Positions 18,182-33,821 of a DNA stretch of 64,000 nucleotides are shown here, in pieces. Under the pieces are notes generated by a model that did no database searches, had not been told where the DNA came from, and worked only from the letters and a program-made list of their open reading frames with translations. Source of the DNA: an uncultured Eubacteriales bacterium (GTDB lineage Bacteria > Acidobacteriota > Aminicenantia > Aminicenantales > Aminicenantaceae); contig CAZWHQ010000012.1 of assembly GCA_964633715.1 (NCBI GenBank), positions 8,062-72,061 of the forward strand, written 5' to 3'. The translations under genes and the position numbers were made by a program. The first letter of the stretch is position 1. Each line of letters opens with the position of its first letter.

Positions 18182-18413
18182 ATTGTTATTCTACCAGAGC
18201 TCTTCATAATTCTCTATAATTCTTTATTCTCATTTCTTTATTCACATTGAAACTCCAATCCTAAATCTATAATGCCATTTCTGTGGGCGGCTAGATTTAT
18301 AAGAATTATTTATAAGAATTTCCTTTTTGTCTTTGCTCCGAATTCCTCATAAATTTCCTCAAAATCTACCCGCTGACAACTGAAATTAGAATTATCATAT
18401 CAAAACGGTAAGG

Positions 18414-18614
18414 TCAATGGCTCATAAAGCCAAACAACTTCCCCCTATGAGCATTGGCATAGAGTCCTGAGTTACGAATCATGACCTGGCCTTTATCGGG
18501 AATATGGGAGGTGACTCTGGCGATAAACTCCAGATAATCGATATGCTCTGAATCTGTGCTGTGCTTTCCGTATTGATAGATTACCTGCCCTTGGGCCTCA
18601 TCAAAGGAAAGCCG
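18414..18614 (-). mobile_element. Remnant 3' end of an IS91-family (HUH/Y2 rolling-circle) transposase gene
   Basis: EHIDYLEFIARVTSHIPDKGQVMIRNSGLYANAHRGK aligns with the IS91 TnpA C-terminus (…LEfIgR…P.…H.vRyyGlLAnahR). The upstream half of the listed ORF is an alternate frame of the TolB tail. Confidence 0.5.
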
Positions 18615-21353
18615 CTTGAGAGAATGGATCGGTCTTATCATGTACTCTTCCATATCCGGATATATCAAACAGCATCCTCGGCTTTCCCGGAATAATGTCT
18701 GGATAAGATTGAATATCAACGACCCATACATGGCTTTCGTTTGTATAGAAAAGATGTCTTCCATCCCCTGCCCAAAGCGGTTGGTATCCTCCATTTAGGG
18801 ATATCTTCTGACGGCCACCATCTGGACTCAATGACTGAACATAGACTTCATAAATTCCCGTTTCATTTGAGCGATATGCAAGCCAAAGGCCATCAGGAGA
18901 AAACTAGGGATATTTGAGATTAAAATTCGACGGCGAGAAAGGTTTTGCGCTCTTGTTCAGGATATCAAAAAGGAAAGCGGTATTGGAATCTCCTTGAATT
19001 TCCACAAACGTCAGCAAATCCCCTTCAGGAGACCATGAACCAGAATATTTTTCAGTATCATTTTTATAAAGAAGTTCCATCTTTTCGCCATCAGCTTGAA
19101 TTAAGTAAAGGTCAGATGCTACAGACTGAATCCAACTGAAGGCAAGCTGCTTTCCATCTGGAGGAACCCAATTCACATAAGAAGCCACCCCCTCCGATGT
19201 TAACATGGTTGGGATATCTCGAGTGAGGTCATATACCCACAACCGTGGTTCGAGCCCCAAGGTCGTATAGGCAATCTTCTGACCATCAGGAGAAAGCCGG
19301 GGAGCAAAAAAATGTCCCTCTAAAGAGCCTATCGGTTGTTCTGTACCCATCTGATCCACCCAAACAAGGGAGTTTTTCTTGTCAGGGATAATTCCACCAG
19401 CTACATATACCAACTCTCCTGAATTTGAAATGCTGAATAATCCGGAGCCAATATCGGAAAAGAGATTCCCAAAGTTTAACGCCTGCATTACCCCAGAGAC
19501 GATCGGGACAGCACGTCCGATATTTTCAGGTTTATTAATGTCAAAAGGAACAACCATCAGAGTCCCCTGACGAATGAAGATAATATGTCCCGTCTGGATA
19601 TATCGGGCATCTGAGCCGTCCTTCAACAAAATCCTCCACTGATGGGTTTCGGGATCTAAAAAACCTATATCAGGATAGGGCTCATTTTTGGGGTACATGA
19701 TGGTAAATAGAATCCCTTTTCCCAAAGGAAGGACGTGAGGAAGCCGATGGCTGACTTCCTCCCGATTGCGATCTGGTATTGTCAATGGCTCCGTTTCACC
19801 GCTTCCAGCAGAAATGCTGGAAAGCCCTTTATCCCAATCCGAAGAAAATACGATCATTCCATCATCCCCCCAACTGACTCCAAAGGGCCGGGAGACTTCA
19901 CATAATTCCTGGGGGATGCCTCCTCCAACCTGCACCTTCCAGAGTTTATTTTCTGCCCAAAAGCCAACCCACTTGTCATCAGGAGACAGGAATGGGCTGC
20001 CTCCCCCTTCTGTTCCGGCGATGGGAGTAGCTTCCAGTTCGTCAAGTTGTCTAATAAAAAGCTGAGGTATTCGATTTGGTTCGCCATCATCCTTGAGCGC
20101 ACTATAAACAAGGAAATTTCCGTCCCGGGAAATGGCCATGGCAGTCCTGGTTGGCCGTTTAAGAGAATTAATTCTGTACGATCCCCCAAGGGAGTATCCC
20201 GGCCCTAACTTGATCACAGATCGAACTTGTAAAGTAGATAGTTCAATATTGGTAGATCTTTTCACCAAGGAACCGATAAGAATACCTGTAAGGATTAAAA
20301 CTGTTCCGCCTGCGATCATCCAGGCTATTGGAAAACGCTGCTTGGCAGAAAAATCTTCAGTAGGCAGGTCGGCCGGTTCAGCAATCTCGATCCGGGCGTC
20401 AGCAATATCGTGGAGACGCATCCTGGGGTCCTTCTGTAAACATCGGCGAAGAAGCGCCCTTATCCCTCGGGAAGTATTTGATGGAAGTACTGTCCAGTCT
20501 GGTTCGCCCTTTAAGACAAGAGCTAGAGTGTCTGATAGGGTTTCTCCTTGAAGCGGCCGTTTTCCTGATAGACATTCATAAAGTACACTTCCAAAGCCCC
20601 AATGTCAGTCCTTTTATCAACTGCATGGCTCCTGGCTTGCTCTGGGCTCATATAGGCAGCTGTGCCTAAAATAATGCCTGGCTGGGTCATCCGGTCTGTA
20701 AGAGTTGGGGACTTGGAGAGGTCAGTCGCTTTAGGTTCCTCTTGGAAGACTTTTGCCAATCCAAAATCGAGGATCTTAACCTTGCCTTCTGGAGATATCA
20801 TTATGTTTCCCGGTTTTAGATCCCGGTGGATGATTCCTTTTTCATGGGCCGATTCAAGACCCTCCGCTATCTGGCTGCATATTTCAAGAGCCTCGTCCAT
20901 AGGAAGCGGTCCTTTAATTATTCTTTCGGCTAAGGTTTTTCCTTCCACTAATTCCATCACAAGGAACTGCTGTCCATTAGACTTCTCAAGTCCATGGATT
21001 GTCGCGATGTTTTGATGGTTGAGCGATGCCAGTAGTCGGGCTTCCCTTTCGAACCGAGCCAATCGTTCCTTATCCAAAGCAAACGGTTGGGGGAGAACTT
21101 TGACGGCAACCTGACGTTTCAGGCTTGTGTCTTCTGCCAGGTAGACTTCTCCCATTCCTCCCTTACCTAGTTCGCTGATGATTTCGTATCTATTTGCTAA
21201 AGATGTTCCTGGCTTGAATTGAGGATAGGGAGTTTTAATAGTCTTTGTAACTTCAGGAGTATTGATTGACGAACTTAGGTCAGTCCCACAATCACCACAG
21301 AAATTCTTTGTATCAGGATTATCGGTATGACATTTCGGGCATTCGGTTCCCAT
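18601..21353 (-). pseudogene. Kinase 3: zinc-ribbon / Ser-Thr kinase / TM / TolB-like beta-propeller, disrupted by a -1 frameshift near 20605 and an in-frame TAG at 18904-18906
   Basis: Frame A (20523..21353) has the CPKCHTDNP zinc ribbon and kinase subdomains I-IX. The next reading frame continues with HWGFGSVLYECLSGKRPLQGET...CLQKDPRMRLHDIADARIEI (subdomains IX-XI) into the 505-aa ORF. Restoring one T in a homopolymer gives DIWGFGSV. After the TAG at 18904-18906 the same frame continues with FSPDGLWLAYRSNETGIYEV... to 18601. Confidence 0.75.
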
Positions 21354-21377
21354 CGTTCCTCTTTGCTATAGCGACAT

Positions 21378-21408
21378 AAGGATATAAATTTTAGTGAGCG
21401 GGTGTCAA
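21378..21408 (-). promoter_or_regulatory. Conserved kinase-paralog promoter element (copy upstream of kinase 3)
   Basis: AAGGATATAAATT-N11-GGTGTCAA on the plus strand, equivalent to TTGACACC…AATTTATATCCTT on the coding strand. Confidence 0.5.
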
Positions 21409-21521
21409 ATGAGAATACCGGCTCTAAATATTGTTAGGAAACAACCCCTTTCCAAAACATATGGGAAAAAATCAATTATCTCATTCAGAAATGCAGAAAA
21501 GAATTTCCCCGTTAAGATATA

Positions 21522-22052
21522 TCATTGAATGCCAGGAACTAGAGCACTTTTGCTTAGTTTCTCCAGAGTTTTTTGGATTTCCGCATCTGATTTTCCTTGA
21601 ATTTGAATCTTTTTATTAATCCCTAAAACCGTTCCAAGCACTGCACCAGCGACTCCGCCAATAGCTCCAAATGTGATATATTTTTGATTAGGCTCAAAAG
21701 ACCTAGATTGACTTTTTGTGGCTGACCCATAGAGTATGCCAGCTAACACTCCATAAATACCCACTTGCAATACCCTAGATTTTGTCACAATCGTGATCAT
21801 TTCCACTTCCTTTATCAGTATCTGCGATGAAATATCTGCATTTATTTCTGCAGACATTAACAATAACGAATCCTTTTTAACAGTGATGAGTTCACCTGTT
21901 ACTTGTTGACCATCATTTTTCTGAATCCTCAGTTTGGCTCCTTTTCTTACACTTCTGGACAAGTCTTGTGCCATCAAATTCCATGAAAACGCCACTAAAG
22001 AAAGAACAAGCAGCAGTGAAACGATTCCTTTTCTTTTTTCTCCTATAAGCAT
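21522..22052 (-). CDS. Secreted small protein with C-terminal glycine-zipper motif
   Basis: Start at ATG 22052 with a perfect AAGGAG RBS. Signal peptide MLIGEKRKGIVSLLLVLSLVAFSWNLMAQ. C-terminus AIGGVAGAVLGTVLG. It lies between kinases 2 and 3 on the same strand. Confidence 0.6.
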   Translation of the reverse strand: MLIGEKRKGIVSLLLVLSLVAFSWNLMAQDLSRSVRKGAKLRIQKNDGQQVTGELITVKKDSLLLMSAEINADISSQILIKEVEMITIVTKSRVLQVGIYGVLAGILYGSATKSQSRSFEPNQKYITFGAIGGVAGAVLGTVLGINKKIQIQGKSDAEIQKTLEKLSKSALVPGIQ

Positions 22053-22114
22053 TGAACTGTCTCCTTTGTGGATATACATGAAAAGTTAGAGCACCAAGCT
22101 CGGTAAACCTAAAT

Positions 22115-25100
22115 TCATTCTTTCAACCCAGCCAGTCTCTGCTTCGCGTCATCGACTTCAGGGAGGCCGGGATCGGCGTCTTTCCAGAGGTCTAGGAATT
22201 TCTCGTAATTCTCGATGGCAATGGTTTTGTCGCCCTGTTGTTCGTGAATCTTACCGAGCATATAAAAAGCCTTAGCATAAATATTGCCCCAATAAAGCCT
22301 GCCCCATGTCAAGGAAATTATCGTTTCATAATTCTCTTGGGCATTCTCTAAGTCTCCCGCCTTAAAGTTGGCAAAAGCCAAGGAATCGTAAAATAAAGCA
22401 TCAAATGTAGAGTGACCAGATTTTTGAGAGGGTAAAACGGACAATGTTTTCTTAAAATATTCAACAGCAAGCGAATAGTTGTTTTTCTTTTGCTCTATTC
22501 CTCCTTGCAAATGATAATAAAATCTTATGATTTTTTTGTATATTCCATTCTCAATAAATTCTTTTAGTTCATCTGCTGTTTCCTGAGCTTTATCAATAGA
22601 ATTCATCCCAATGTAGGCAAGTCCCTTCTGCCAAAGAGCGACTCTTTGCCTAGAAAGGCTTTCCGTCTCCAAGGCAAAATCCAAATACTTCTCATTTTCT
22701 TTCAAAGCTGAGCTAAAATCTCCAATTGAAAGATAATGTTCGCACAAATAAAGATGAGTATAGGATTCAGCTGAAGCATTTGAAGCTTGAATCGATAACT
22801 CACGCCTCTTTTCAATTTGTTCTTTTGATTCTCTAAATTTCCCTTCAGCCCGATATAATAATGACAAGCGGAACATACTTCCCCTAACATAGCCTTCATT
22901 CGAAGTATCGGCAAGTTTTTGGAATTCTTTTTCTGCTTCTAAAAAATCTCCTTTCAACAAGTAAATATCTCCAAAATAATAATAAATCCCATGATAAGTT
23001 GGGTCGAGGGAAAAGGCTTTGTTTGCTTCATTCAATGCAAGGTCAAATTCTCCCTGAGAAGCATAAATAGTGGATATTCGTCTGCGAAGAAATGCAGAAT
23101 CGGAAAAGCTTTTGGTATAATCTTCAAGTATTTCTCTGGCTTTATCATAAAGTCCTTTAGCTTCATACATAATTGACATTCCATTGTAGGTAACAGTAGA
23201 AGAGACTTTTTGCTTCATGTTCGCTTCATATGGTTTGATAGCCTTATCCCATTCTTCTATTTGAGAATATACCCATGCCAGGTTACTATTCGCCATCCTA
23301 TCATCAGGATAGAGTTCTAGTAGTTTGATATAAGCTTCAATACTTTTATCAAAGGTCTTCTCTGAAACATTGTAGAAATCTCCTTCGATGATATACCGCT
23401 CTCGCTCCGATATACGTTCTCTCAGTTCAAAAGCTTTCTGGATATAAACTTTTTCTTTATCTAAATTACGAAGATTGTAGGAAGCTGCTGCCATACTTCT
23501 GTAGGCCATTGCAATTCCTGGATCAAGGTCGACAGCTTTCTCCATAATTGCTATGCTATTCTCCCATTCCCGATTGCGAAAAAATTCTCTACCCTTGCTG
23601 TAAAACTTAAAAGCTTCAGGTATTGCGGTTGTAATTTCCCTTAACTCTTTGTTGATATCCTCTGCTATTAGTCTTGGAGATAGATCCAGGTCTGACTTGA
23701 TCTGGTTTGACACCTCGTCTACTTTGGAAATGATCTCTTCTTCTCCAATACATTCAATACGCAAAGAGTTTATAACCTCACCTGTCTGCTGACTTTGAAG
23801 CGATAAAGTGATGATGATGTTTTGCCCGGGTTTCAAGATGCTTCCACTTAAAGTGTGGGAAGCTCTTCCTTCGCTTGCAACTTTTACGAGATCTTCTTTG
23901 GTATATTTTTTGCCCTCATCCAGATTGAGCTTCTTTAAGATACTGTAGACCGTGTTTCCGTCTAACACATTGATGTATTTTGATTGAGCAAGCTTTATGA
24001 TGAGCAGTTCAGTGAGTCCCATTTCCCAGGCATCCAGGCTGCTATCGCTTGAGAGATTATCAAAGTAGAGGATAGCAAGGGATGGTTTTTCTGTTAGAGA
24101 TGGAATGAATTCTTTCTTTGGGATAAACTGCAAGATCATGAATGTGATGACGGCCAGAGCAATGATTCCAATTGTGGGGATTAGGAGTTTTTTTACTTTG
24201 AACTTTACTGTTATCTCCTTTGAAGTTACCGACTTTTTTTTCGATACAATCCTGTCAGTAGTAGGAATTCCTTTCTCAATATTCTCTAATTCAGACCGTA
24301 ATTCTTCTGCACTCTGATAACGGTTTTCCCTATCTTTTTCTAGACATTTCAAAATCAACTGGTTGAAGTCGTCTGGGATTCGCTCATTAAAATTCTTGGG
24401 AGCTTTTGGAGTTTCAGTCCTTTGTTTGACTCCAACAGTAATAGCGGAATCCCCTTCAAAGGGCACCCTGTCTGTCAGCATTTTGTAGAGGATAATTCCT
24501 AGAGAATAAATATCCGATCTCTGATCGACATCTTTTCCTTCAACTTGCTCAGGTGACATATATTCTGGAGTACCGATTATGGCTCCAGATCCTGTAATGC
24601 TTTTTCCTTTGACAGCCCTGGCAATACCAAAGTCCATAATCCTTACGTTCCCGCCCCTGTCGATCATGATATTGTTGGGTTTAAGGTCTCTGTGGATTAT
24701 CCCAAGGCTGTGTGCTTCCTTGAGTCCAGCACAAATTTGCTTGGCAATTGAAACGGCTTTTCCAACCGTAAGTTGTCCTGTCTGGCGAATCAATCCTTTT
24801 AAATCCTGTCCAGAGATGTATTCCATGGTGATGTAGTGGAGGTTCTTCTCTTCCCCCAAATCAAACATCGCACAGACATTCTTGTGCCTTATCTTTCGTG
24901 CAAACTTAAGTTCATTCCTGAATCGTTCAATAGTTTTTTTATCTGCTGCAATTTCAGGTTTGATGAGCTTTAAAGCAACTTCTTCTTTGACCTTAGTATC
25001 TTCTACTCTATAAACTTTACCCATCCCTCCTTTACCCAGTTCTTCGATAATTTCGTACCTGTCAACGAAAGTACTTCCGCGAGTTAATGCTTCCGTAGAA

Positions 25101-25219
25101 GTTTCATATGTTTTGGTGAGGACTCCCTCTCTTGCATCAGGAAGAGGAGTGTCACACTCACCACAGAATTTCTGAGAATCAGGATTATCTGTGTGACACT
25201 TAGGGCATGTTGTGCTCAT
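22115..25219 (-). CDS. Zinc-ribbon / Ser-Thr protein kinase / TM / TPR-repeat sensor (kinase 2), paralog of kinase 1
   Basis: CPKCHTDNP...CGEC. Kinase motifs GKGGMGKVYRV, HRDLKPNNIMID, DFGIAR and GTPEYMSPEQ. A TM segment and a long TPR region. The C-terminus DLWKDADPG..DAKQRLAGLKE parallels kinase 1. Confidence 0.9.
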   Translation of the reverse strand: MSTTCPKCHTDNPDSQKFCGECDTPLPDAREGVLTKTYETSTEALTRGSTFVDRYEIIEELGKGGMGKVYRVEDTKVKEEVALKLIKPEIAADKKTIERFRNELKFARKIRHKNVCAMFDLGEEKNLHYITMEYISGQDLKGLIRQTGQLTVGKAVSIAKQICAGLKEAHSLGIIHRDLKPNNIMIDRGGNVRIMDFGIARAVKGKSITGSGAIIGTPEYMSPEQVEGKDVDQRSDIYSLGIILYKMLTDRVPFEGDSAITVGVKQRTETPKAPKNFNERIPDDFNQLILKCLEKDRENRYQSAEELRSELENIEKGIPTTDRIVSKKKSVTSKEITVKFKVKKLLIPTIGIIALAVITFMILQFIPKKEFIPSLTEKPSLAILYFDNLSSDSSLDAWEMGLTELLIIKLAQSKYINVLDGNTVYSILKKLNLDEGKKYTKEDLVKVASEGRASHTLSGSILKPGQNIIITLSLQSQQTGEVINSLRIECIGEEEIISKVDEVSNQIKSDLDLSPRLIAEDINKELREITTAIPEAFKFYSKGREFFRNREWENSIAIMEKAVDLDPGIAMAYRSMAAASYNLRNLDKEKVYIQKAFELRERISERERYIIEGDFYNVSEKTFDKSIEAYIKLLELYPDDRMANSNLAWVYSQIEEWDKAIKPYEANMKQKVSSTVTYNGMSIMYEAKGLYDKAREILEDYTKSFSDSAFLRRRISTIYASQGEFDLALNEANKAFSLDPTYHGIYYYFGDIYLLKGDFLEAEKEFQKLADTSNEGYVRGSMFRLSLLYRAEGKFRESKEQIEKRRELSIQASNASAESYTHLYLCEHYLSIGDFSSALKENEKYLDFALETESLSRQRVALWQKGLAYIGMNSIDKAQETADELKEFIENGIYKKIIRFYYHLQGGIEQKKNNYSLAVEYFKKTLSVLPSQKSGHSTFDALFYDSLAFANFKAGDLENAQENYETIISLTWGRLYWGNIYAKAFYMLGKIHEQQGDKTIAIENYEKFLDLWKDADPGLPEVDDAKQRLAGLKE

Positions 25220-25243
25220 CTTCCCTCCTACCTATGTGACAAT

Positions 25244-25272
25244 AGGGTATAAATTTAAGCGATGGGTGTCAA
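25244..25272 (-). promoter_or_regulatory. Conserved kinase-paralog promoter element (copy upstream of kinase 2)
   Basis: AGGGTATAAATTT-N10-GGTGTCAA is located about 25 nt upstream of the ATG at 25219, after an AGGAGGG RBS. Confidence 0.5.
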
Positions 25273-25439
25273 ACGGTAAAGATTACAGGGATTGAGAATT
25301 GGTCGGCAATCGATTCCAGACACACGATCCTAGGCTCAAAAAGGTATCTATGAGCACTTTTTGGATGGAAATGATGAAGAGGTAAGGGTATCCCCCTTAG
25401 AATTACAAGAAAATTAGAAACCACCCCTATAGTACATGT

Positions 25440-25520
25440 TTTGGAAAATAACGGGGAAACTTCAAAAAAGTGGAAAATTAGGGAAAAAATGGGAAATATA
25501 TGGGCGGGAGGTATGAAAAG
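25440..25520. repeat. Phased G-tract/A-tract repeats (GGGAAAA-like units every ~10-11 bp)
   Basis: ggaaaataac ggggaaacttcaaaaaa gtggaaaatta gggaaaaaat gggaaatatat gggcgggagg lies in the 460-bp intergenic region upstream of kinase 2. Only spurious ORFs are listed there. Confidence 0.4.
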
Positions 25521-25681
25521 AGTAACTCCCATTCCAAGGTACAAAATTCCCCATAGGGGGGGTCGTTTCTTCTGGTTGTGGCCCTTTTATCCTTGGCTGA
25601 TATGGGAACTGCTGTAGTGTACAATACAATGAGAAGGCAAAAAGAAAGGGCAAAGATTGGCGGTCTCCTTGCCCGTATGGG

Positions 25682-26344
25682 TTACTGTTTCAGTTGTTCA
25701 ATCAAATTCTGATTGCAGAGGACACAGGACAGGACAAGTCCTGCCTTGCCCCATACGTTGGCCCCGCATATCGGGCAAGTGTATTTTGTTCTCTGGCCTT
25801 GTTTTGTCGGTTGGGGGGTAGGTGGTGCTCCTGGTTCCTGGGGGTCAGGGCTTCCAAGGTTCTCAGTAAGGTATGGAAAGAAGCAATCCTCTGGAAGCTT
25901 TACGACTGCGTTCCATGTCGCCCCTTCTCTGATTATTGCTTGAGTGCAATTCTGCCCCGTGCACTTGGTGGGCTCTTTCACGTTGATGTTTTTCAATCCC
26001 AGATCGTGGGCTTTTGAAGCGAACTCCTGATTGTGATATCCGTTCCGGGTTTTCTTCCCGTGGTAATGTTGCCAGAGGTGTATCATTTCATGAACAAGTA
26101 CACCCATGAGGTGTACAATGTCTTTCGACTGCATGAGGTTTGCATTTAAAGCGATTTCTGAGACTTTGGCCCTGTTCTTAATCCATTTCTCTGCGACAAA
26201 ATATCCACCCAGGATATTGGCGTTTCGTGTCAATGACAGCATAGGGGTTTGAAGGATGCCCCCAAAAAGAGTTGAATTGAGATAGTCAAAAGAGTTCTGG
26301 AAGGCCGTCGATTGTTCGATGGTTGGTTTAATTGTAATGTTCAT
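25682..26344 (-). CDS. SprT-like zinc metalloprotease domain protein with C-terminal zinc ribbon
   Basis: HEMIHLWQ is an HExxH motif. The C-terminus has CPICGANVWGK…CVLC (a Cys4 ribbon). Confidence 0.6.
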   Translation of the reverse strand: MNITIKPTIEQSTAFQNSFDYLNSTLFGGILQTPMLSLTRNANILGGYFVAEKWIKNRAKVSEIALNANLMQSKDIVHLMGVLVHEMIHLWQHYHGKKTRNGYHNQEFASKAHDLGLKNINVKEPTKCTGQNCTQAIIREGATWNAVVKLPEDCFFPYLTENLGSPDPQEPGAPPTPQPTKQGQRTKYTCPICGANVWGKAGLVLSCVLCNQNLIEQLKQ

Positions 26345-26420
26345 TACATTCTATTCCTTTGTTTTTTGATTCTCGAGCGCGAGTCTTCGATGATATGGAT
26401 TTTATCTTCGTCGAAGTCGT

Positions 26421-26693
26421 CTAGAACGTAGGCGTTGGAAGGGCACCCTTTCTGACATAGATGTCTGCATTCCGGAGCCCGTAGCTTACTCTTTTAATCT
26501 TTTTAATTTTGGTATGTACTCCTTCGGTAAATGCATTTGTTGTTCGATTATCAAAGTAATTGAGTATCTGATTTTTCCATCTCCGCAGCATATTCCTCCA
26601 GCAGAGTATCGCACCATCATCTGAGACCCTCATGGCCGCAATCACCATATCTAAGACCTTCTCGCCTTGTTTGCGATCCTCTGCTCTGTACAT
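26421..26693 (-). mobile_element. ISL3-family transposase gene remnant (C-terminal ~90 codons only)
   Basis: …ILNYFDNRTTNAFTEGVHTKIKKIKRVSYGLRNADIYVRK is a typical ISL3 TnpA C-terminus (TNg.tEg.N.KIK.iKR..yG.RN). The N-terminal 300+ codons are missing and replaced by the palindrome. Confidence 0.7.
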
Positions 26694-26717
26694 CTCTCTC
26701 AGCTTCTCTTTGACCCA

Positions 26718-26830
26718 TTAATTGGGGACAGTCCCTACTTTTTATAATTGGGGACAGTCCCTACTTTTTAATTGAAAAAGTGGGGACTGTCCCCAATTAT
26801 AAAAAGTAGGGACTGTCCCCAATTAATTAA
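26718..26830. repeat. 113-bp near-perfect palindrome built from four copies of a 27-bp unit (two direct, then two inverted): BIME/MITE-like element
   Basis: TTAATTGGGGACAGTCCCTACTTTTTATAATTGGGGACAGTCCCTACTTTTTAATTG | AAAAAGTGGGGACTGTCCCCAATTATAAAAAGTAGGGACTGTCCCCAATTAATTAA. There is one mismatch between the arms. Each unit contains the mini-palindrome GGGGAC(A/T)GTCCCC. Confidence 0.85.
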
Positions 26831-26834
26831 GGTT

Positions 26835-26850
26835 GATGTCCCTCTTATTT
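26835..26850 (-). repeat. Inverted copy C of the REP-like unit directly after the dctM stop
   Basis: The minus strand reads TAA ATAAGAGGGACATC, compared with TGA ATTAGAGGGACATC at 9560. It continues straight into the palindrome. Confidence 0.6.
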
Positions 26851-28150
26851 AAAATCCGAATAGTCTCGGCAGGAACAAACTGATCTGAGGGATATAGGTA
26901 ACAATAAGAAGTGCTATAACCATGGCCAGATAGAGAGGGATCAGGGGTTTTAAAACTTTTGATATGCTCGTCCCGGCTATCCCGCAACCTACAAAAAGAA
27001 CACTCCCTACAGGTGGTGTACAGAGGCCGATGCAGAGATTTAAGACCAAAATGATGCCGAAATGAACGGGATCAACTCCCAGTTTGATCGCTACAGGCAG
27101 GAAGATAGGAGTAAATATTAGAACAGCGGGTGTGATGTCAATAAACGTCCCCATGATCAGCAAAAAAAGATTGATGATCAGAAGCACAACGATGGGTGAA
27201 TTCGAGAGGGATATTAAGGCAGAGCTGATCCCCTGAGGGATATTCTCGTAGGATATAAGCCAGGACATGGCCATTGAGGCTGCAACAAGAAGCAGGACCA
27301 CGGCTGTTGTCGTTGAAGAACCGAGCAGGATTTTAGGCAGTTCCCTCCATTTAATTTCTTTATACACAAGGACTGAGAGGATAAATGCGTACAGAACGGC
27401 AATAGCACTGGCTTCGGTGGCCGTAAAATACCCTCCAACAATACCACCAATGACAAGAATGATCATAAAGAGGCTTGGTAGAGCATCGAAAAATTTGAGC
27501 CACGCTTCCTTGAACTTGACTCGATCAAAGGTTGGATAGTTTCGTCTGAAAGCAATCGCTCCTGACACAGCCATCAGGGAGACTCCGATGAGAATACCGG
27601 GGAGATATCCAGCAAGGAAGAGAGCTCCAATCGACACACCTCCAGACGCGAGTGAATAGACAATCAAAATATTGCTGGGAGGAATAATAAGTCCTGTTGT
27701 AGCTGAGGTGATATTGACGGCTGCACTGTAGTTCAGATCGTATCCTTCTTTTTTCATCATAGGAATCATAAATCCGCCAATCGCGGCAGATGTGGCGACA
27801 GCTGATCCGGAAATGGAACCAAAAAGCATCGCTGCCATAGTGTGCACAAAGGCCAAACCTCCAGGCAGCATCCCCACAAATACTTTTGCGAATTCTATCA
27901 ATCGTCTGGCAATCCCTCCCCTGTTCATGAGCTGACCTGAGAGGATAAAAAAAGGTATAGCGAGAAGAGCGAAACTGTCTAATCCAGTGGCCATCCTCTG
28001 GGCGACCGTTGTCAGAGCAGGCCCCATTTTTATCCCGAGCAGTAAAGTGGACACCGTCGCCAGACCAATACTAAAGGATATGGGTACGCCTATCAGAAGG
28101 AGAAAAATAAAACTTATTGCGAGGACTAAGATATGAAGGACTTCCATCAC
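26849..28150 (-). CDS. dctM: TRAP transporter large permease subunit
   Basis: 433 aa, polytopic, typical DctM length and hydrophobicity. 4-nt overlap with dctQ. Confidence 0.9.
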   Translation of the reverse strand: MMEVLHILVLAISFIFLLLIGVPISFSIGLATVSTLLLGIKMGPALTTVAQRMATGLDSFALLAIPFFILSGQLMNRGGIARRLIEFAKVFVGMLPGGLAFVHTMAAMLFGSISGSAVATSAAIGGFMIPMMKKEGYDLNYSAAVNITSATTGLIIPPSNILIVYSLASGGVSIGALFLAGYLPGILIGVSLMAVSGAIAFRRNYPTFDRVKFKEAWLKFFDALPSLFMIILVIGGIVGGYFTATEASAIAVLYAFILSVLVYKEIKWRELPKILLGSSTTTAVVLLLVAASMAMSWLISYENIPQGISSALISLSNSPIVVLLIINLFLLIMGTFIDITPAVLIFTPIFLPVAIKLGVDPVHFGIILVLNLCIGLCTPPVGSVLFVGCGIAGTSISKVLKPLIPLYLAMVIALLIVTYIPQISLFLPRLFGF

Positions 28151-28689
28151 AGGGCTCCTGCTCTTTGGTCCAAACTCTCCGGATTATTTTGGTCTTCAAA
28201 GGAGATGTCCTTCTGTTTTTTCTGAATCTCAAATAGAAATAAAAGAGAGTAAAACATCAGGAGCAGTCCACTCAGCGGAAGCACAAGATAGACATATCCC
28301 AGTTTGATGCGTAAAACGGCCGATATCTGATTGAGGGTAAGCGTTATAATCACCAAGCGAACACCGCCAAAAACCATCACAAAAAGAGAAAAAACAAGAA
28401 TCGAAACTTCGATGAGACATTCGGCCAGGTGTTTGGTTCTTTTGGTGAATTGATTGACCAGAACATCGATGGCCAGATGTTTCTTTCGTCCCGCCACATA
28501 ACTGGCGCCCAATAATCCGATCCAAATGAGCAGATACCTGGCCAATTCTTCCGTAAAGGAACTTGGATTCTTCAATACAAAGCGTGTGAAGACCTGCCAC
28601 AAGACATTGACTACATTGGCTGCCATGAGAACAATAAGGATCCATTCCAAAACTTTATCGACGGCTTGTTTAATATTCTGGAGCCTCAT
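28147..28689 (-). CDS. dctQ: TRAP transporter small permease subunit
   Basis: 180 aa with 4 TM segments. ATGA overlaps on both sides. Confidence 0.75.
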   Translation of the reverse strand: MRLQNIKQAVDKVLEWILIVLMAANVVNVLWQVFTRFVLKNPSSFTEELARYLLIWIGLLGASYVAGRKKHLAIDVLVNQFTKRTKHLAECLIEVSILVFSLFVMVFGGVRLVIITLTLNQISAVLRIKLGYVYLVLPLSGLLLMFYSLLFLFEIQKKQKDISFEDQNNPESLDQRAGAL

Positions 28690-29687
28690 TTGACGTTTTT
28701 TATTTGCTGGATAAGGGTGTCGATCTCTGGGAAAGCCCTAAAATTATCATACATGGATTGAACTTTTTCTATAAATTCGCTTTTATCTGGATAGTGAATC
28801 TCCACTCCGGCTTCCTGGACACTTTTCAGTGCCAGCCGAGTGGCCTCTTTCCACAACTTTTTTTGTAGCTGGGCACATTCTTCGACCGCATCCTGTAGGA
28901 TCTGTTTTTCTTCCGTGGACAGATCTTTCCAGGATTGTGTGCTGATCAAGAGGACATCGGGCACTCCTGTGTGCTCATCGAGAGAATAAAACTTGCAGAC
29001 TTCATAATGCCGGGAGAGAAAAAAGCTTGGGGGATTGTTTTCTGCCCCATCCACAACTCCCTGTTGGAGAGCAGAATACAGTTCTCCCCAGGAAATAGGT
29101 GTTGGAGATCCCCCCATGGCTTGAACCATTTTGATGGACGTGGGACTCTCCTGGGTCCGAATTTTTAATCCCGCTAGATCACCAGGATTTAGGATGGGTT
29201 TTTCTTTGGAGTAAAAGCTGCGGGTGCCCGCATCAAAGTAGCACAACCCACGGAGCCAGAATTCTTCTCCCTCTAAAAGCAACTTCTTCCCAACCTCACC
29301 TTCCAGAACTTGAAAACGGTGTTCCTCATCCCTAAATATGTAGGGAAGGCTCAAAACACTCATGGCCGGTACAAATCCTTCCAACACACTGCAGGAAACT
29401 TTTGTCATATCGAGGCTGCCGATTTGAAGCAGTTCCAAACATTCCCGCTCGGAACCCAACTGCTCGGAGGGATAGATATCGATCCTCATTTGGCCTTCTG
29501 ATTTTTCTCCCACTTGTTTCGCCATAAACTCCATGGCTTTATGAACAGAATGAGAAGGATCCAGGCCGTGACCGAGTTTTAAAACTGTTATTCTCCGCTT
29601 TGGACTGCAGGAGAGAGAAAAAAGGAGAAGGAACAGAAACACTTTTAACTTCAACAAACTTATATATCTATTCACAATGGTATTCAC
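28686..29687 (-). CDS. dctP: TRAP transporter periplasmic solute-binding protein (DctP family), lipoprotein-type signal
   Basis: 333 aa. Signal peptide ends in LSCS. DctP-like fold length. It is in an operon with dctQM. Confidence 0.85.
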   Translation of the reverse strand: MNTIVNRYISLLKLKVFLFLLLFSLSCSPKRRITVLKLGHGLDPSHSVHKAMEFMAKQVGEKSEGQMRIDIYPSEQLGSERECLELLQIGSLDMTKVSCSVLEGFVPAMSVLSLPYIFRDEEHRFQVLEGEVGKKLLLEGEEFWLRGLCYFDAGTRSFYSKEKPILNPGDLAGLKIRTQESPTSIKMVQAMGGSPTPISWGELYSALQQGVVDGAENNPPSFFLSRHYEVCKFYSLDEHTGVPDVLLISTQSWKDLSTEEKQILQDAVEECAQLQKKLWKEATRLALKSVQEAGVEIHYPDKSEFIEKVQSMYDNFRAFPEIDTLIQQIKNVK

Positions 29688-30685
29688 TTTGAGAGAGGAT
29701 GGATCACCTCAGCGTGAATTTTCCCCATTTCGGAAACCAGCACATCGAACATGTCCTCTCCCTTGTACATGCCAATAATGGATCCACCTGATCCGGCAAA
29801 TTTTGCGGAGGCTCCACACCGTCGTGCAGTCTGGATGAGCTCCTTGTTGGCCTCGCTGATGAACATGATTTTTGATCTCAGATCGAAGTTCAGATTCATA
29901 AGATTAAAAAATTTGTTCCAATCTCCCTGTTTTAAGGCAGAAAATCCTGCTTCAGCCAGCTCAGCTAAAGACTTGAGGGTGGAAAGGATGTTTTTGTCTC
30001 CACTCTCATATCCTTTACGGATATCGTTTAAAACTTTCCCCGAAATCTTGCCCAGATCAGATTTATAGGCCAAGTAAAAATCTGGAAGAAGCGACAGGTC
30101 AAGATTTTTGTAAATGCCGTGGCCCGTCTTTTTAATGAGGCTCTTTTTCAAATCCATGTACACACATCCTTCATACACTTGAACAACACGGTCCATGTAT
30201 CCTGCATTGATCCCCAATTCCTTTAATTCGGCATCGAGGATAAGAGAGGGTTGGAAGTCCTTAGGAATATCCACATCATAGAATTCCATTAAGGCCCGCA
30301 GAGCGGCCGTAATGATCGCACTCGATCCGCCCAGGCCGATCTGACGGGGTATAGTGGTTTTATACTGAATGGAAAAATTTTTGTTTTCCAACTCAATATT
30401 ATGAAGCCGGCAGTAGTCACTGAATTTTTTAATCGTGGCTTTTATAAGGCGGGTTCCTCCGTAATATCCAAAAAGTTGGGTAGCCTCCACAAGGTTATCT
30501 ATATTTTTATATAAATTTTTTTCTGTATCAGAAGGCACTATTCTCAACTCGGATGATTCTTCTAGGAACACTTGGGCAGAAAAATTTTTTATGTTAAGGG
30601 CAATAATTTTACCGAAATAGCCATCCGAGGGATTGCCCAGAAGCCCGGCTCGGGCAAAAGCTCGCGTCTCAATAGCCATTATCAC
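29684..30685 (-). CDS. GHMP-family sugar kinase, glucuronokinase-like
   Basis: The N-terminus RAFARAGLLGNPSDGYFG resembles plant glucuronokinase. The GHMP ATP motif is PRQIGLGGSSA. The start is GTG 30685 or ATG 30679. Confidence 0.65.
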   Translation of the reverse strand: MIMAIETRAFARAGLLGNPSDGYFGKIIALNIKNFSAQVFLEESSELRIVPSDTEKNLYKNIDNLVEATQLFGYYGGTRLIKATIKKFSDYCRLHNIELENKNFSIQYKTTIPRQIGLGGSSAIITAALRALMEFYDVDIPKDFQPSLILDAELKELGINAGYMDRVVQVYEGCVYMDLKKSLIKKTGHGIYKNLDLSLLPDFYLAYKSDLGKISGKVLNDIRKGYESGDKNILSTLKSLAELAEAGFSALKQGDWNKFFNLMNLNFDLRSKIMFISEANKELIQTARRCGASAKFAGSGGSIIGMYKGEDMFDVLVSEMGKIHAEVIHPLSK

Positions 30686-31538
30686 TCTTCAGAACAGAAA
30701 GAACGCCTCTCACATAACCGACCGATTCCGCGGCTCCGGCTAAAGGATCTTTGCTATCTTTTTCATATTCGAGGGAAGCGATTCCCGCATATTTGATTTT
30801 GAGCAAAGTCCCAATGAATTGGGGAATGTTTATGACTCCCCGGCCGACTTCCACAGTGCTTCCTTCCTTGGTCGAAGCCGACACATCTTTAAAATGGACA
30901 TCGAGCAGGCGGTCGGCATACTTCAAGGCAGAATCAGACGGATTGACTCCCGAACGCTGAGTATGGCCAATATCAATGCAGAGTCCCATCCGCAAATCCA
31001 GGCTTTTTATTTTTTCATAAACACTCTCCGGAGTCGGATAGAGCTCGTCTCCGGGACCATGGTTATGGATGGCCACCCGGATATTGTATTCTTTCACTTT
31101 ATTTTCGACCAGTTCCAAGAGCTCGTGATTGGGAACACCTATGATCACTCGCATGCCGGCAGCCTTGGCATAGTCAAAAGCCCTCTTGACCTCCTCTTCA
31201 TTCTTCATATAAACCACACCACAGCCGTAGAGATCGAGACCGGCATCCTCAACTTTTTGGGCAACAGTCCTAATTTCTGATTCCGTGCTTTCCATAGGCA
31301 GATGAAAGTCTTTCAAACAAATACGGGTCAATCCCAATCTCTTCGTCATTGCCAGGGTTTTTTCCAGATCAAACTCCCTGAACGTATAGGAGGCCATCCC
31401 CAATTTTAATGCTGTCCCGCCGGATTCAGCCCGCTGCCCCTTGTGCTTCGAAAAGGACTCAAGTTGTGATGAAAATGATGCCGCCATCACCCCCGTTCCG
31501 GTCAGTTTAAAAAATTCCCGTCTTGTGGTTTTAGTCAT
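30669..31538 (-). CDS. Xylose-isomerase-like TIM-barrel sugar (phosphate) isomerase/epimerase with Tat signal
   Basis: Start ATG 31538 with an AAGGAGAG RBS. MTKTTRREFFKLTGTGVMAASFSS is a Tat motif. The TIM-barrel AP-endonuclease/xylose isomerase fold signature includes HNHGP. Confidence 0.75.
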   Translation of the reverse strand: MTKTTRREFFKLTGTGVMAASFSSQLESFSKHKGQRAESGGTALKLGMASYTFREFDLEKTLAMTKRLGLTRICLKDFHLPMESTESEIRTVAQKVEDAGLDLYGCGVVYMKNEEEVKRAFDYAKAAGMRVIIGVPNHELLELVENKVKEYNIRVAIHNHGPGDELYPTPESVYEKIKSLDLRMGLCIDIGHTQRSGVNPSDSALKYADRLLDVHFKDVSASTKEGSTVEVGRGVINIPQFIGTLLKIKYAGIASLEYEKDSKDPLAGAAESVGYVRGVLSVLKSDNGY

Positions 31539-31651
31539 GGATCCACTCTCCTTGAACCGATTCCCCATTGAAATCAAATTTTAGTCTTCCTGTCAACCTT
31601 AATATTGACCCAAAGGAGATTTTTAATATACTAAGAAAGGAGAAATGAAGT

Positions 31652-32470
31652 ATGCAAATTAAAAGAGTACTTTATAATCTGTGCAGAAATAGAAATTTAG
31701 TCCTTTTAATTTCTATATTCCTCCTATTGGCGGTATGTGGAAAAGAAAAACCAGTCAACCCTGAATCCTTTTCGGCCCAAGAACTCAACACTCTGACAGC
31801 AGAGGAAAAAGCGGAAGAGTGGACACTTCTCTTTGACGGCAAAACATTCAACGGCTGGCGTGGAATAGGTTTGGAAAACATCCCGGAGGGACACTGGACC
31901 ATAGAAGACGGCGCCATCAAAAAGATCCCCTCCGGCAAAGTTTCCCTCCAGGAAGACGGGCAGCCTCTCGTAGGCGGAGATATAATGACAACCGAGACAT
32001 TCGAGGACTTCGAGCTCTATTGGGAATGGAAGATTGTCCCAGCTGGAAACAGCGGAATCAAATACAATGTCTCCGAAAACATGTCGGCTTCGAATCCTCC
32101 GCCTCATGGGGCACTCGGATTTGAATACCAGATTCTCGATGACGATCTCCACAGCGACGGACAAAGAGGGGGACGGTATACGGCGTCCGCCCTCTATGAT
32201 CTTGTGGAACCTATAGGAAAAGAGCTGAAACCTGTTGGAGAATTTAATACGTCCCAGATTATTATGAAGGGGCAGCACGGTGAACACTGGCTCAACGGCA
32301 CCAAGGTTTTAGAATATGACATGGACACAGATGAATTTAAAGCTCTGGTCGCCAAAAGCAAATATAAAGACTATGAGGGATTTGCGGACAAACGCAGCGG
32401 TCACATCGTTATTCAAGACCACACTTCAGCAGCCTGGTTCCGCAACATCAAAATCCGAATATTCAAATAA
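31652..32470 (+). CDS. DUF1080 (3-keto-disaccharide hydrolase-like, LamG/concanavalin fold) lipoprotein
   Basis: WTLLFDGKTFNGWRGIG…WTIEDGAIK…IQDHTSAAWFRNIKI is the characteristic DUF1080 start and end. A lipobox cysteine is present. Confidence 0.7.
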   Translation: MQIKRVLYNLCRNRNLVLLISIFLLLAVCGKEKPVNPESFSAQELNTLTAEEKAEEWTLLFDGKTFNGWRGIGLENIPEGHWTIEDGAIKKIPSGKVSLQEDGQPLVGGDIMTTETFEDFELYWEWKIVPAGNSGIKYNVSENMSASNPPPHGALGFEYQILDDDLHSDGQRGGRYTASALYDLVEPIGKELKPVGEFNTSQIIMKGQHGEHWLNGTKVLEYDMDTDEFKALVAKSKYKDYEGFADKRSGHIVIQDHTSAAWFRNIKIRIFK

Positions 32471-32480
32471 GGGGGAAAAT

Positions 32481-33821
32481 ATGAGTCAAAAAACAATCAC
32501 ACGAAGAAATTTTTTAAAAACGGTTTCAACAGGAGCAGTGGCGGCATCTGTTGTTCGACTGCCGACCTCAAGCTACGGAAAAATCCTTGGAGCCAACGAC
32601 CGCATTCGCGTTGGAATTGTCGGTTTTTCGGACAGGGCCCGGAATTCACTCATCCCCGCTTTTCTGGGAAGTGCAGAAGAACTCAATTTTGAAATTACTG
32701 CTGTCTCAGATATCTGGAACCGGAGGCGGGAAGAAGGAAAGGCTTTCCTGGAAGAAAAAACAGGCAATCCTGTGGCTGTTTTGCGCAACAACGAGGAGCT
32801 CTATGACTCAAATACAGTCGATGCTGTCATCATCAGCACCGCTGATTTTCAGCATGCCCTTCACTGCATACAAGGAGTCGAAGCAGGAAAAGATGTCTAT
32901 GTAGAAAAACCTTTCGCTAACAGCATGGCCGATGCTCGGGATGCCCTGAAAACCGTGTCAAAATCAGATAAAATCGTACAGATCGGAACCCAGCGGAGAA
33001 GCGCGGCCAACTACATCCAGGCCGACAGATTTATCCGGTCCGGCCGCTTTGGGGATATTGTGGCTGTGGAGATGACCTGGAATGTCAATCAACCCGGACG
33101 CTGGCGCAGACCTAAATTGGTCGAGGACCTCCGAGAAGACGATGTGGATTGGAAACGCTATCTTATGAACCGTCCATTCGAAGCATGGGATCCCAGAAAA
33201 TACATCGAATACCGCCTTTTCTGGCCTTACTCTTCTGGTATACCAGGTCAGTGGATGGTTCACCAGATCGACACGGTCCATTGGTTCACAGACCTTCCCC
33301 ATCCACGCAGTGTGGTGGTCAACGGCGGAATTTATCTCTGGAAAGACGGCCGCAAAAATTTTGACACCCTGACGGCCGTATTTGATTACGGTCCTCTTAA
33401 AGACACAACAAAAGGTTTCCAAGTTATTTATGTCTCACGGCAAACGAATTCAGCCGGCGGCGTTAAAGAGCTCTATTTTTCTAACGGAGGAACCCTCAAT
33501 CTGCTGAACAATACCATCACGCCCGAGGGTGGTTTAACCCAGGGAATGGCTGCAGCCATGGGGATGGAAGAAAACAGACTTCCCGAGATGTCCATCGCCG
33601 AAGCAGTAGGTGTCGAAACAGCAGCCGATACAGGAACGGACGACGCCACATCCGCCCACATGCGGAATTGGATGGAGTGTGTACGGAGCCGGAAAACACC
33701 AAATGCCGATATCCATGCCGCCTACAATCATTCCGTTGCGCTTAACATGACCATAGCAGCCATGCACTCAGGGAAACGCGTCACATTCAACGAGTCCAAA
33801 CAAGAGGTCATTATCAGCTAA
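32481..33821 (+). CDS. Gfo/Idh/MocA-family NAD(P)-dependent oxidoreductase with Tat signal
   Basis: Start ATG 32481 (MSQKTITRRNFLKTVSTGAVAAS). The Rossmann motif is VGIVGFSDRARN. The listed 32316 start would overlap the upstream gene. Confidence 0.85.
   Translation: MSQKTITRRNFLKTVSTGAVAASVVRLPTSSYGKILGANDRIRVGIVGFSDRARNSLIPAFLGSAEELNFEITAVSDIWNRRREEGKAFLEEKTGNPVAVLRNNEELYDSNTVDAVIISTADFQHALHCIQGVEAGKDVYVEKPFANSMADARDALKTVSKSDKIVQIGTQRRSAANYIQADRFIRSGRFGDIVAVEMTWNVNQPGRWRRPKLVEDLREDDVDWKRYLMNRPFEAWDPRKYIEYRLFWPYSSGIPGQWMVHQIDTVHWFTDLPHPRSVVVNGGIYLWKDGRKNFDTLTAVFDYGPLKDTTKGFQVIYVSRQTNSAGGVKELYFSNGGTLNLLNNTITPEGGLTQGMAAAMGMEENRLPEMSIAEAVGVETAADTGTDDATSAHMRNWMECVRSRKTPNADIHAAYNHSVALNMTIAAMHSGKRVTFNESKQEVIIS

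Follow-up and report, generated by a model that had tools for sequence, protein, structure and literature searches.

The end of a TRAP transporter operon in the 64,000-nt stretch of DNA analysed here (the window) adjoins a long palindrome, the remains of an ISL3-family transposase gene and a gene for an SprT-like protease. The question raised by this locus is what kind of element the palindrome represents, and whether it had a part in the loss of the transposase gene next to it. Based on the collective evidence presented below, the palindrome is understood, with good though not complete confidence, as a cluster of four GT[AG]G-tagged REP (repetitive extragenic palindrome) units placed after dctM, lying beside wreckage of ISL3, g2 and SprT genes to which it is unrelated.

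Architecture of the locus

The palindrome occupies positions 26717–26827 of the window (111 nt) and consists of two 53-nt arms, differing by one mismatch, around a 5-nt centre. The initial annotation was thus right about a long palindrome, its 113 bp and its perfection excepted. Four 26-nt units compose it, two direct and then two inverted, with spacers of 0–5 nt, as had been described except that the period had been given as 27 bp. The features of the locus are as follows.

25682–26344, minus strand: intact gene for an SprT-like Zn-metalloprotease (Pfam and translation)
26347–26448, minus strand: tail of the g2 gene, last 34 codons (tblastn against g2 of locus L053)
26444–26716, about 275 nt, minus strand: internal fragment of an ISL3-family transposase gene (Pfam and nucleotide homology)
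26717–26769 and 26775–26827: left and right arms of the palindrome, 53 nt each, 98% complementary
26719–26744, plus strand: REP unit u1, outer left, TAATTGGGGACAGTCCCTACTTTTTA, 0 mismatches
26745–26770, plus strand: REP unit u2, inner left, identical to u1
26774–26799, minus strand: REP unit u2', inner right, 2 mismatches, GTGG head (CCCCAC, TTTTTC end)
26800–26825, minus strand: REP unit u1', outer right, identical to u1
26849–28150, minus strand: dctM, which closes the dctP-dctQ-dctM operon for a TRAP transporter (translation and domain match)

The unit TAATTGGGGACAGTCCCTACTTTTTA is found four times in the palindrome and has no match in shuffled sequence. The GTAG head of u1 belongs to the minus-strand reading and points toward the centre of the palindrome; at the centre-facing ends of all units it is GTAG three times and GTGG once, the tags as read being AAAAAGTAGGGAC in three units and AAAAAGTGGGGAC in one. 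The window holds two inverted unit pairs, one nested within the other. Folding of the palindrome as single-stranded DNA gives −60.3 kcal/mol (z = −15.6), and as RNA of the dctM-sense strand −96.3 kcal/mol (z = −15.9). A search of Rfam returned only sub-threshold matches to microRNA precursors, as any long hairpin gives.

The cluster lies 21 nt past the dctM stop codon (26849–26851). An extra inverted REP-like unit had been proposed just before that stop, and support for it is weak. The sequence in question, GTCCCTCTTATTTA at 26838–26851 (plus strand), overlaps the stop codon, looks like the 3' half of a unit and is able to pair with u1' in RNA; among random 55-mers drawn from the window, however, 4.4% reach its local score of 9. 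Because a score reached in about 4% of cases is at chance level, a fifth unit was set aside, and the sequence is at most weakly suggestive of a degenerate half unit.

A dispersed repeat family at gene ends

The units of the window belong to a family with the core GGGGAC[A/T]GTCCC[C/T], tagged by GT[AG]G, which is present in Aminicenantes MAGs and in 33 metagenome contigs, sediment metagenomes included. Its commonest form elsewhere is a two-unit inverted hairpin placed directly 3' of stop codons, with GTGG as the tag on most copies outside the window. Such doublets occur at no fewer than 7 distinct loci, where arms of 25 nt are near-identical while flanks and loops differ (they were seen in L004, L005, L007, L017, L020, L021, L029, L033 and L037). 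Units occur singly too, with other flanks (AAAGT..., AAGTC...) on the same core. When placement was counted against open frames of 120 aa or more, which together cover 89% of bases, 72% of the 88 cores in 266 kb were located outside open frames or at most 30 nt from a frame 3' end. A second four-unit cluster was found at none of 38 loci.

In the source organism, the family may be sparse or extinct, given that the 64-kb window contains neither a gene for a RAYT (REP-associated tyrosine transposase) nor a REP copy beyond the cluster and that 146 kb of control loci, the closest dctM relatives included, contain no REP copy. Among those relatives (93% and 83% DctM identity), there is no REP core 3' of dctM and a different downstream gene in each; the flank being wholly different, no clean empty site is available for comparison. 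The window DctM itself, searched with its 433-aa and 432-aa starts, had no exact protein match, and DctQ was matched.

RAYT genes and the proposed origin of the cluster

Genes for Y1 transposases of 224–235 aa are present at eight loci of related contigs (L016, L019, L022, L024, L025, L027, L028 and L030), and in each of them REP cores lie no more than about 100 nt from the ends of the gene. Pfam Y1_Tnp was matched above its cut-off by the proteins of L022 (E = 1.6e-11) and L027 (E = 3.3e-13). The L022 protein scored 76.3 bits against the NCBIfam model 'REP-associated tyrosine transposase', just under the curated cut-off of 80, and its sole match in the PDB is 4ER8, the TnpArep of E. coli, in which HMH and YIYINP align with its HYH and YIERNP. 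The RAYTs of the related contigs fall into three lineages with mutual identity of 22–32%, and all three are bracketed by one and the same REP core. One REP copy lies in frame within a RAYT gene. RAYT genes were found in 8 of 37 loci selected for REPs, compared to none in 21 control loci plus the window. For the toxin-antitoxin genes that REPs separate in L022 and L027, an integron cassette array was also considered and rejected: no attC-like GTTRRRY core is present, and a RAYT is encoded next to them instead of an integrase.

On this evidence, the REP family is dispersed in Aminicenantes-type genomes, usually just past stop codons and in the form of a REPIN, a pair of inverted units that folds into one hairpin; by analogy with known systems, REPINs would be copied as single-stranded hairpins in trans by the RAYT, an HUH tyrosine transposase. 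The four-unit order would most simply have arisen by insertion of one REPIN into the loop of another already present at the site, or by symmetric duplication. Once in place, the cluster would probably act as a transcript-end hairpin or terminator of the TRAP operon.

One alternative understands the units as immobile host signals under selection, that is, a lineage-specific bidirectional terminator or protein-binding palindrome whose link to RAYT is incidental. It accommodates that the sites coincide with the ends of genes and in many cases fall precisely between two convergent stop codons, and that each unit shows a hairpin with T-run on both strands (four pattern matches in the units of the window, two per strand). 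It does not readily account for identical or near-identical 25-nt arms at unrelated loci and in different MAGs, for one core bracketing three divergent RAYT genes, or for the copy in frame within a RAYT gene; and the single-unit hairpins, at −6.4 to −8.7 kcal/mol (z = −0.9 to −1.6), are weak as terminators. We consider it unlikely as the origin of the units. The same weakness of the single-unit hairpins makes a terminator role for the REP cluster at the end of the TRAP operon plausible and not more. The bidirectional terminator suggested by the initial annotation is accordingly retained for its terminator-like features on both strands, with the low stability of individual units weighing against it.

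Assembly support

A long palindrome invites the suspicion that it, or the join of its ISL3 side to its dctM side, is an artefact of assembly, produced by fold-back or by a chimeric join through a repeat. JGI sample 3300002231 covers the locus with two contigs, of which contig A corresponds to window positions 20682–26805 and contig B to 26796–32688. Both end inside the palindrome and overlap by just 10 nt, and contig B has one mismatch near its end; these are the observations that speak for an artefact, and the link between the palindrome halves rests on assemblies rather than reads. The collapse of a true palindrome in a de Bruijn graph would, however, be expected to stop contigs at this very point. 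Contig A on its own contains three full units, the u2' variant included, as well as the asymmetric centre and the beginning of the fourth unit, while contig B shows that fourth unit (u1') joined to the dctM stop side. The flanks outside the 53-nt arms are unrelated, unlike those of a fold-back chimera, the SprT-like protein is also found on a 93-kb NCBI contig, and many assemblies made independently contain genuine two-unit hairpins of this family. An artefact thus appears improbable. A genuine palindrome would in turn explain why assemblies of the source organism break at 26717–26827.

The possibility of a MITE

The size of about 110 nt and the presence of TA or TTAA-like bases at the borders of every doublet (ATTAATTGGGG...CCCCAATTAAT), conceivably a TA duplication, recall a classical MITE, derived from a DDE-type IS (e.g., IS630-like, with a TA target) by deletion of the interior and moved by cut-and-paste with target duplication. 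The TA/AATT bases recur at every site as part of the conserved consensus, so that a target duplication cannot be told apart from the element itself. Single units, and units with other flanks on the same core, exist; all transposases found next to units are of the Y1/RAYT type, and a DDE gene next to units was found at none of the 38 loci. Nor is the ISL3 element a candidate parent: inverted repeats of its relatives, GGCTCTATRACAAAAAGTGTGATG, are unrelated to the REP unit. Taken together, a MITE origin is distinctly improbable. The earlier designation as a MITE/PATE-type element is appropriate insofar as it implies a small non-autonomous repeat of the mobile type, and it fails as regards kinship with ISL3.

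The ISL3 fragment and its junctions

The transposase fragment beside the REP cluster is matched by Pfam DDE_Tnp_ISL3 with E = 1.8e-20 over profile positions 151–237 of 240, and by NCBIfam with 66 bits at a cut-off of 180. Its DNA is 85–90% identical to ISL3 derivatives of related metagenomes, the homology being confined to about 26444–26721. It is without both inverted repeats, without the N-terminal, catalytic two-thirds and without the last ~20 codons. Judged from its sequence, what was annotated as an 'ISL3 transposase' is a dead internal fragment and not an IS; the family assignment stands, and survival of the gene's 3' end does not, given truncation on both sides. Homology ends at ~26444, short of the IRR, and the left ISL3 end is replaced by the REP cluster. 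The IRR consensus of relatives has no match in the window at up to 3 mismatches, and the stretch 26345–26420, in which the IS end had been expected, is the 3' end of g2. A protein search for full-length ISL3 relatives gave only short proteins (68–157 aa); the DNA retrieved for these relatives represents derivatives in which internal sequence is deleted and both inverted repeats persist.

On the side away from the palindrome, the fragment is fused to the g2 tail, recognized by tblastn at 53% identity over 34 aa (E = 2.8e-7; residues 220–253 of the 255 in g2 of L053). The g2 stop overlaps the start of the SprT-like gene (TAATG). That gene encodes a protein matching Pfam PF10263 (E = 7.8e-10; 39 bits, cut-off 25.6), with the motif HEMIH and a C-terminal CPIC...CVLC (CxxC...CxxC); its score against the NCBIfam SprT equivalog, 19.9 at a cut-off of 113, implies that it is not an orthologue of E. 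coli SprT. Relatives have the operon order AAA_5 - g2 - SprT, conserved in L053 and L056–59. Since g2 there sits between the AAA_5 ATPase gene and the SprT-like gene, gene order marks the SprT-like gene of the window as an orphan left from the end of a phage-like AAA_5 - g2 - SprT module, and its annotation, like that of the ISL3 fragment, is corrected in this sense. The view of the protease as cargo of mobile or defence regions finds agreement in the mobile or phage-like context in relatives but none on the side of defence, the protease having no match among PADLOC defence models. Kinases encoded nearby match the PADLOC PD-T4-6 models only by virtue of a generic kinase domain.

That the palindrome arose from the ISL3 element, or caused its loss, is very improbable: the outer edge of the palindrome (26717–26721) is indeed where ISL3 homology ends, to the nucleotides given, and insertion sequences are known to insert into REPs (PMC1525189), but the REP unit and the ISL3 ends share only the 8-nt run AAAAAGTG, the other end of the fragment is likewise an illegitimate junction, with g2, and the relatives decay by internal deletion with their inverted repeats retained, unlike the fragment in the window. 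The idea that the palindrome had excised most of the IS is not sustained, considering that the fragment has lost both ends and that its other junction is with a truncated g2. Under the preferred reading of a REP cluster beside unrelated wreckage, these same features suggest that at least two illegitimate deletions produced the junctions of the ISL3 fragment, with one deletion stopping exactly at the outer edge of the cluster. One could speculate that RAYT cleavage or processing at the REP hairpin nucleated that deletion, which we regard as a long shot. If it did, a domesticated REP/RAYT system would actively erode mobile DNA that lands beside REPINs, its targets here having been ISL3 and the phage-like module, and the nested 111-nt palindrome would be the footprint.

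Relation to known systems

With Correia elements and other MITEs, the cluster has in common that these are inverted repeats of ~100–150 nt at gene ends, capable of termination and with TA-rich borders; it differs in that no DDE parent was found, no target duplication is separable, single units exist and the transposases are tyrosine-type. The clustering of several REP units at an operon end, with proposed roles in termination and mRNA stability, recalls the BIMEs of E. coli. In BIMEs, unit orientation alternates and spacers are defined (PMC2817692); the window cluster shows neither, having two direct and two inverted units with almost no spacer between them.

There is likeness also to the TT dimers of the GTAG REP superfamily. 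As characterized in an excerpt of Di Nocera et al. (PMC3733652), GTAG REPs are defined by a GTAG tag at one stem-loop end, with GTRG/GTGG variants accepted, and all window units carry such a tag (three GTAG, one GTGG). The inward-facing tags, the location downstream of coding regions and the occurrence of intragenic copies, all described in the same excerpt, are likewise shared. A point of difference from what is described there is that the last tag base of the window unit pairs into the stem. As hosts of GTAG repeats, the excerpt names Proteobacteria, Cyanobacteria, Chloroflexi and the PVC group but not Aminicenantes, and none of the papers in the literature searched combined 'Aminicenantes' with 'repetitive extragenic'.

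Lastly, the REPIN/RAYT systems of Pseudomonas fluorescens SBW25 and of E. coli TnpArep (PMC3116915, PMC3337134, PMC3479197) provide a close parallel. The family described here shares with them short palindromic units in inverted pairs that form one long hairpin, the extragenic placement at gene 3' ends and, in related contigs, a Y1/HUH gene bracketed by units. It is unlike them in its host, the Aminicenantes (Acidobacteriota-related), in a core that is an almost perfect 13-nt palindrome, in spacers of 2–7 nt, in a copy density that looks low (one cluster in the 64-kb window) and in the nested order that generates a 111-nt near-perfect palindrome, seen at no other locus examined. The cluster is an element of an ordinary kind and leaves the understanding of REP/RAYT systems unchanged; its importance is in extending the REP/REPIN-RAYT type to the Aminicenantes, an uncultured sediment lineage, for which the core motif and the three RAYT lineages can now be used in tracing these elements in MAGs.

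Results

Structure and origin of the palindrome

The 111-nt palindrome at the end of the TRAP transporter operon (dctP-dctQ-dctM) is a cluster of REPs (short palindromic repeat units) and REPINs (two inverted REPs in one hairpin), belonging in Aminicenantes to a family associated with REP-associated tyrosine transposases (RAYTs), and beside it lie an ISL3 fragment that is dead and a SprT-like gene orphaned from its operon. The palindrome occupies 26717-26827, with arms of 53 nt each that are 98% complementary and 5 nt apart, and is made up of four copies of the 26-nt unit TAATTGGGGACAGTCCCTACTTTTTA, for which shuffled sequence gave no matches comparable to the four in the window. On this evidence of arms, units and shuffle control, the four-unit palindrome of the initial annotation is real; its description there as perfect, with a 27-bp period and 113 bp long, is corrected to one mismatch, 26 nt and 111 nt, and the extra "REP-like unit" placed by the dctM stop (26838-26851) is equalled by ~4% of random windows and is dropped.

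Features of the locus (window coordinates, strand, description)
25682-26344, minus, SprT-like gene, 220 aa, intact
26719-26744, plus, unit copy 1, direct
26745-26770, plus, unit copy 2, direct
26774-26799, minus, unit copy 3, two mismatches
26800-26825, minus, unit copy 4
26849-26851, minus, dctM stop codon

As single-stranded DNA the palindrome region folds into one hairpin (-60.3 kcal/mol, z = -15.6), and the RNA of the dctM-sense strand reaches -96.3 kcal/mol (z = -15.9). Its order of two direct and two inverted units was seen at no other repeat locus examined. The simplest origin of the four-unit form would be a REPIN inserting in the loop of a resident REPIN; alternatively, a symmetric duplication could have added one unit on each arm. 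The left units are identical to each other and two positions set the inner right one apart, a mismatch pattern that would fit an imperfect inserted doublet only slightly better than symmetric duplication. A chimeric join between the two sides of the palindrome during assembly is improbable: two contigs of JGI sample 3300002231 do both end within the palindrome and overlap by only 10 nt, but this is the spot at which we infer that a de Bruijn graph would collapse on a true palindrome, and the SprT protein is also carried by a 93-kb NCBI contig. The first JGI contig, 100% identical to 20682-26805, ends inside the far arm, having covered three complete units, the asymmetric centre and the opening bases of unit copy 4; the second (26796-32688) ends inside the palindrome from the opposite side, with the fourth unit joined to dctM.

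The 3' end of dctM

All genes flanking the palindrome lie on the minus strand, with dctP, dctQ and dctM upstream and the ISL3 piece after it. Each unit reads TGGGGACAGTCCC(C/T)A followed by CTTTTT and scores as terminator-like on both strands, so that transcription leaving dctM meets two such sites in tandem. Isolated unit hairpins have little stability (-6.4 and -8.7 kcal/mol, no clear gain over shuffles), unlike the full four-unit hairpin, which is very stable. The cluster may plausibly serve the TRAP operon as a terminator or transcript-end structure, in agreement with what has been proposed for REPs generally (PMC3733652).

The operon of AP-endonuclease-like, GHMP kinase, dctP, dctQ and dctM genes is conserved in relatives. 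In all those examined (L047-L052, compared with window 26849) synteny is lost exactly at the dctM stop codon, and none of the dctM loci carries the 13-nt palindrome GGGGAC[A/T]GTCCCC that forms the conserved heart of the unit (the core). Since a different gene follows in each lineage (an amino-acid permease; a 537-nt gap and a gene of unknown function; a GH38 glycosidase), the dctM 3' end is a recurrent rearrangement point, and a clean empty site is absent among these relatives.

The ISL3 fragment and the SprT-like gene

On the minus strand, dctM is followed by 21 nt, the four REP units, an internal ISL3 fragment, the tail of a gene termed g2 and the intact SprT-like gene. Nucleotide homology of the window to ISL3 relatives (85-90%) covers about 26444-26721 only. 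On the palindrome side it reaches no further than the repeat's outer border (relatives TTTTACTGGGTCAAAG, window CAATTAATGGGTCAAAG), and on the other it breaks off past GTCAGAAAGG, ~90 nt before the element end. The fetched DNA of these relatives consists of decayed or internally deleted derivatives in which neither inverted repeat has been lost: GGCTCTATGACAAAAAGTGTGATG... and its complement, with the end ...ATAGAGCC. Their IRR consensus has no match across the whole window, which also answers in the negative the suggestion of an ISL3 inverted repeat in 26345-26420. From these homology limits and the absent IRR, the supposed transposase "stump" is an internal fragment with neither end. Its closest protein-database relatives are all short (68-157 aa), and a word-index protein search returned no full-length one. 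The closest relatives, at L039 215-900 (~680 nt) and L043 3330-4310 (~980 nt), are short, internally deleted elements which, with both 24-30-nt inverted repeats kept, are MITE-like ISL3 derivatives. Elsewhere in the window, 18309-18421 shows 72% identity over 115 nt to DNA just outside the L039 derivative, and a minus-strand ORF at 18414-18794 matches Pfam Y2_Tnp (IS91-type, E = 1.1e-8), marking another transposase remnant within 18309-18794.

In relatives the SprT-like gene closes a conserved operon of three genes with one orientation, after an AAA_5 ATPase gene and g2 (L053 139-2776; L056 2933-5663; also L057-L059). SprT identity to the window is 65% in the closest relative, L053, and 43% in the more distant L056-L059, whose phage-like contigs (~44 kb) are packed with small ORFs and have HTH and P22-like matches. 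The g2 product, ~250 aa in relatives, is unannotated and has no Pfam match. Its last 34 residues are encoded at 26347-26448 (53% identity, E = 2.8e-7), with the g2 stop overlapping the SprT start as TAATG; at the window locus g2 lacks its first 85%, and the AAA_5 ATPase gene is missing altogether.

Two junctions are illegitimate: the REP edge is joined to mid-transposase sequence, and the 3' part of the transposase to g2. They call for two or more deletions or a single complex event. No evidence shows the palindrome to have caused them, or to have excised the IS as had been proposed; that one junction falls exactly at the hairpin edge is suggestive, and an active role of the cluster in the deletion is kept as an improbable reading. 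The reading of SprT as mobile or defence cargo holds in part, the protein matching phage family PHROG 6361 (function unknown; E = 1.7e-20) and no PADLOC defence model.

Beyond SprT, the 460 nt at 25220-25681 are without a convincing gene and include, at 25546-25563, a G-rich hairpin with a T-rich stretch after it. Two Ser/Thr kinase genes adjoin (20523-25219), each with a zinc-ribbon-like N-terminal start and the one at 22115-25219 with a long TPR tail; both match PADLOC PD-T4-6 models strongly, via the generic kinase domain only.

The repeat family and its transposases

With each species represented by a single genome, a scan places the unit in Candidatus Aminicenantes MAGs and one Clostridia MAG, and a metagenome scan adds 33 contigs. 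Outside the window the units most commonly come in pairs, as a hairpin in which TAATTGGGGACAGTCCCCACTTTTT and AAAAAGTGGGGACTGTCCCCAATTA enclose a loop of 2-7 nt, with almost identical arms at at least seven unrelated loci, varying loops and flanks, and a position directly 3' of stop codons, at times exactly between two convergent genes. The core is also found singly, between different short flanking sequences and often in several copies on one contig. Of 88 cores in 266 kb of repeat-carrying loci, 72% lie outside open frames 120 aa or longer, which make up 89% of the bases, or within 30 nt of a frame's 3' end. A single unit AAAAAGTAGGGACTGTCCCCAAATTGTCCCCACTTTTG stands beside an identical flank in L002 97-140 (the Clostridia MAG) and two metagenome contigs (L013 5319-5360, L035 795-840), from which the repeat may occur outside Aminicenantes; ~70 nt beyond it, L002 has a tRNA-gene-like sequence, recognized by eye only.

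RAYT genes occur in 8 of 37 repeat-fetched loci as against 0 of 21 control loci; the 64-kb window holds this one REP cluster and no RAYT. L022 4886-5560 encodes a 224-aa protein with cores 98 and 24 nt upstream and another overlapping its stop codon, and L027 is arranged alike. Both proteins match Pfam Y1_Tnp (IS200-like; E = 1.6e-11 and 3.3e-13, respectively). Against the NCBIfam model "REP-associated tyrosine transposase" the L022 protein scores 76.3 bits, slightly below the cut-off of 80; its sole solved-structure match is E. coli TnpArep (4ER8), with whose HMH and YIYINP its HUH motif (HYH) and tyrosine motif YIERNP align. Two more RAYT lineages are core-bracketed, one in L024 and one in L016/L019/L025/L030, and the three share just 22-32% identity pairwise. 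In L016 (1610-2314), and likewise L025, L030 and L019, the RAYT coding sequence holds an in-frame REP core ...FLAKVGTVPTLAIQ.... Toxin-antitoxin pairs (PIN with Phd/YefM; MazF/PemK with a small partner) adjoin the RAYT gene in L022 4780-6310, L027 680-2900, L014, L003 and L028, set apart cassette-like by single REPs. Several genes at these loci, the RAYT among them, finish within a REP, which gives their products the tail ...(K)VGTVPN/T.

A transposase gene flanked by its own REPs, together with hairpin REP doublets, is the defining REPIN-RAYT picture (PMC3116915, PMC3337134, PMC5581495). One unit end bears a tag, GTAG in three window units and GTGG in one, as in most copies elsewhere; in the account of PMC3733652, GTAG defines a superfamily of REPs with GTRG and GTGG variants on record, and the window tags, pointing to the centre, correspond to what that source terms "TT dimers".
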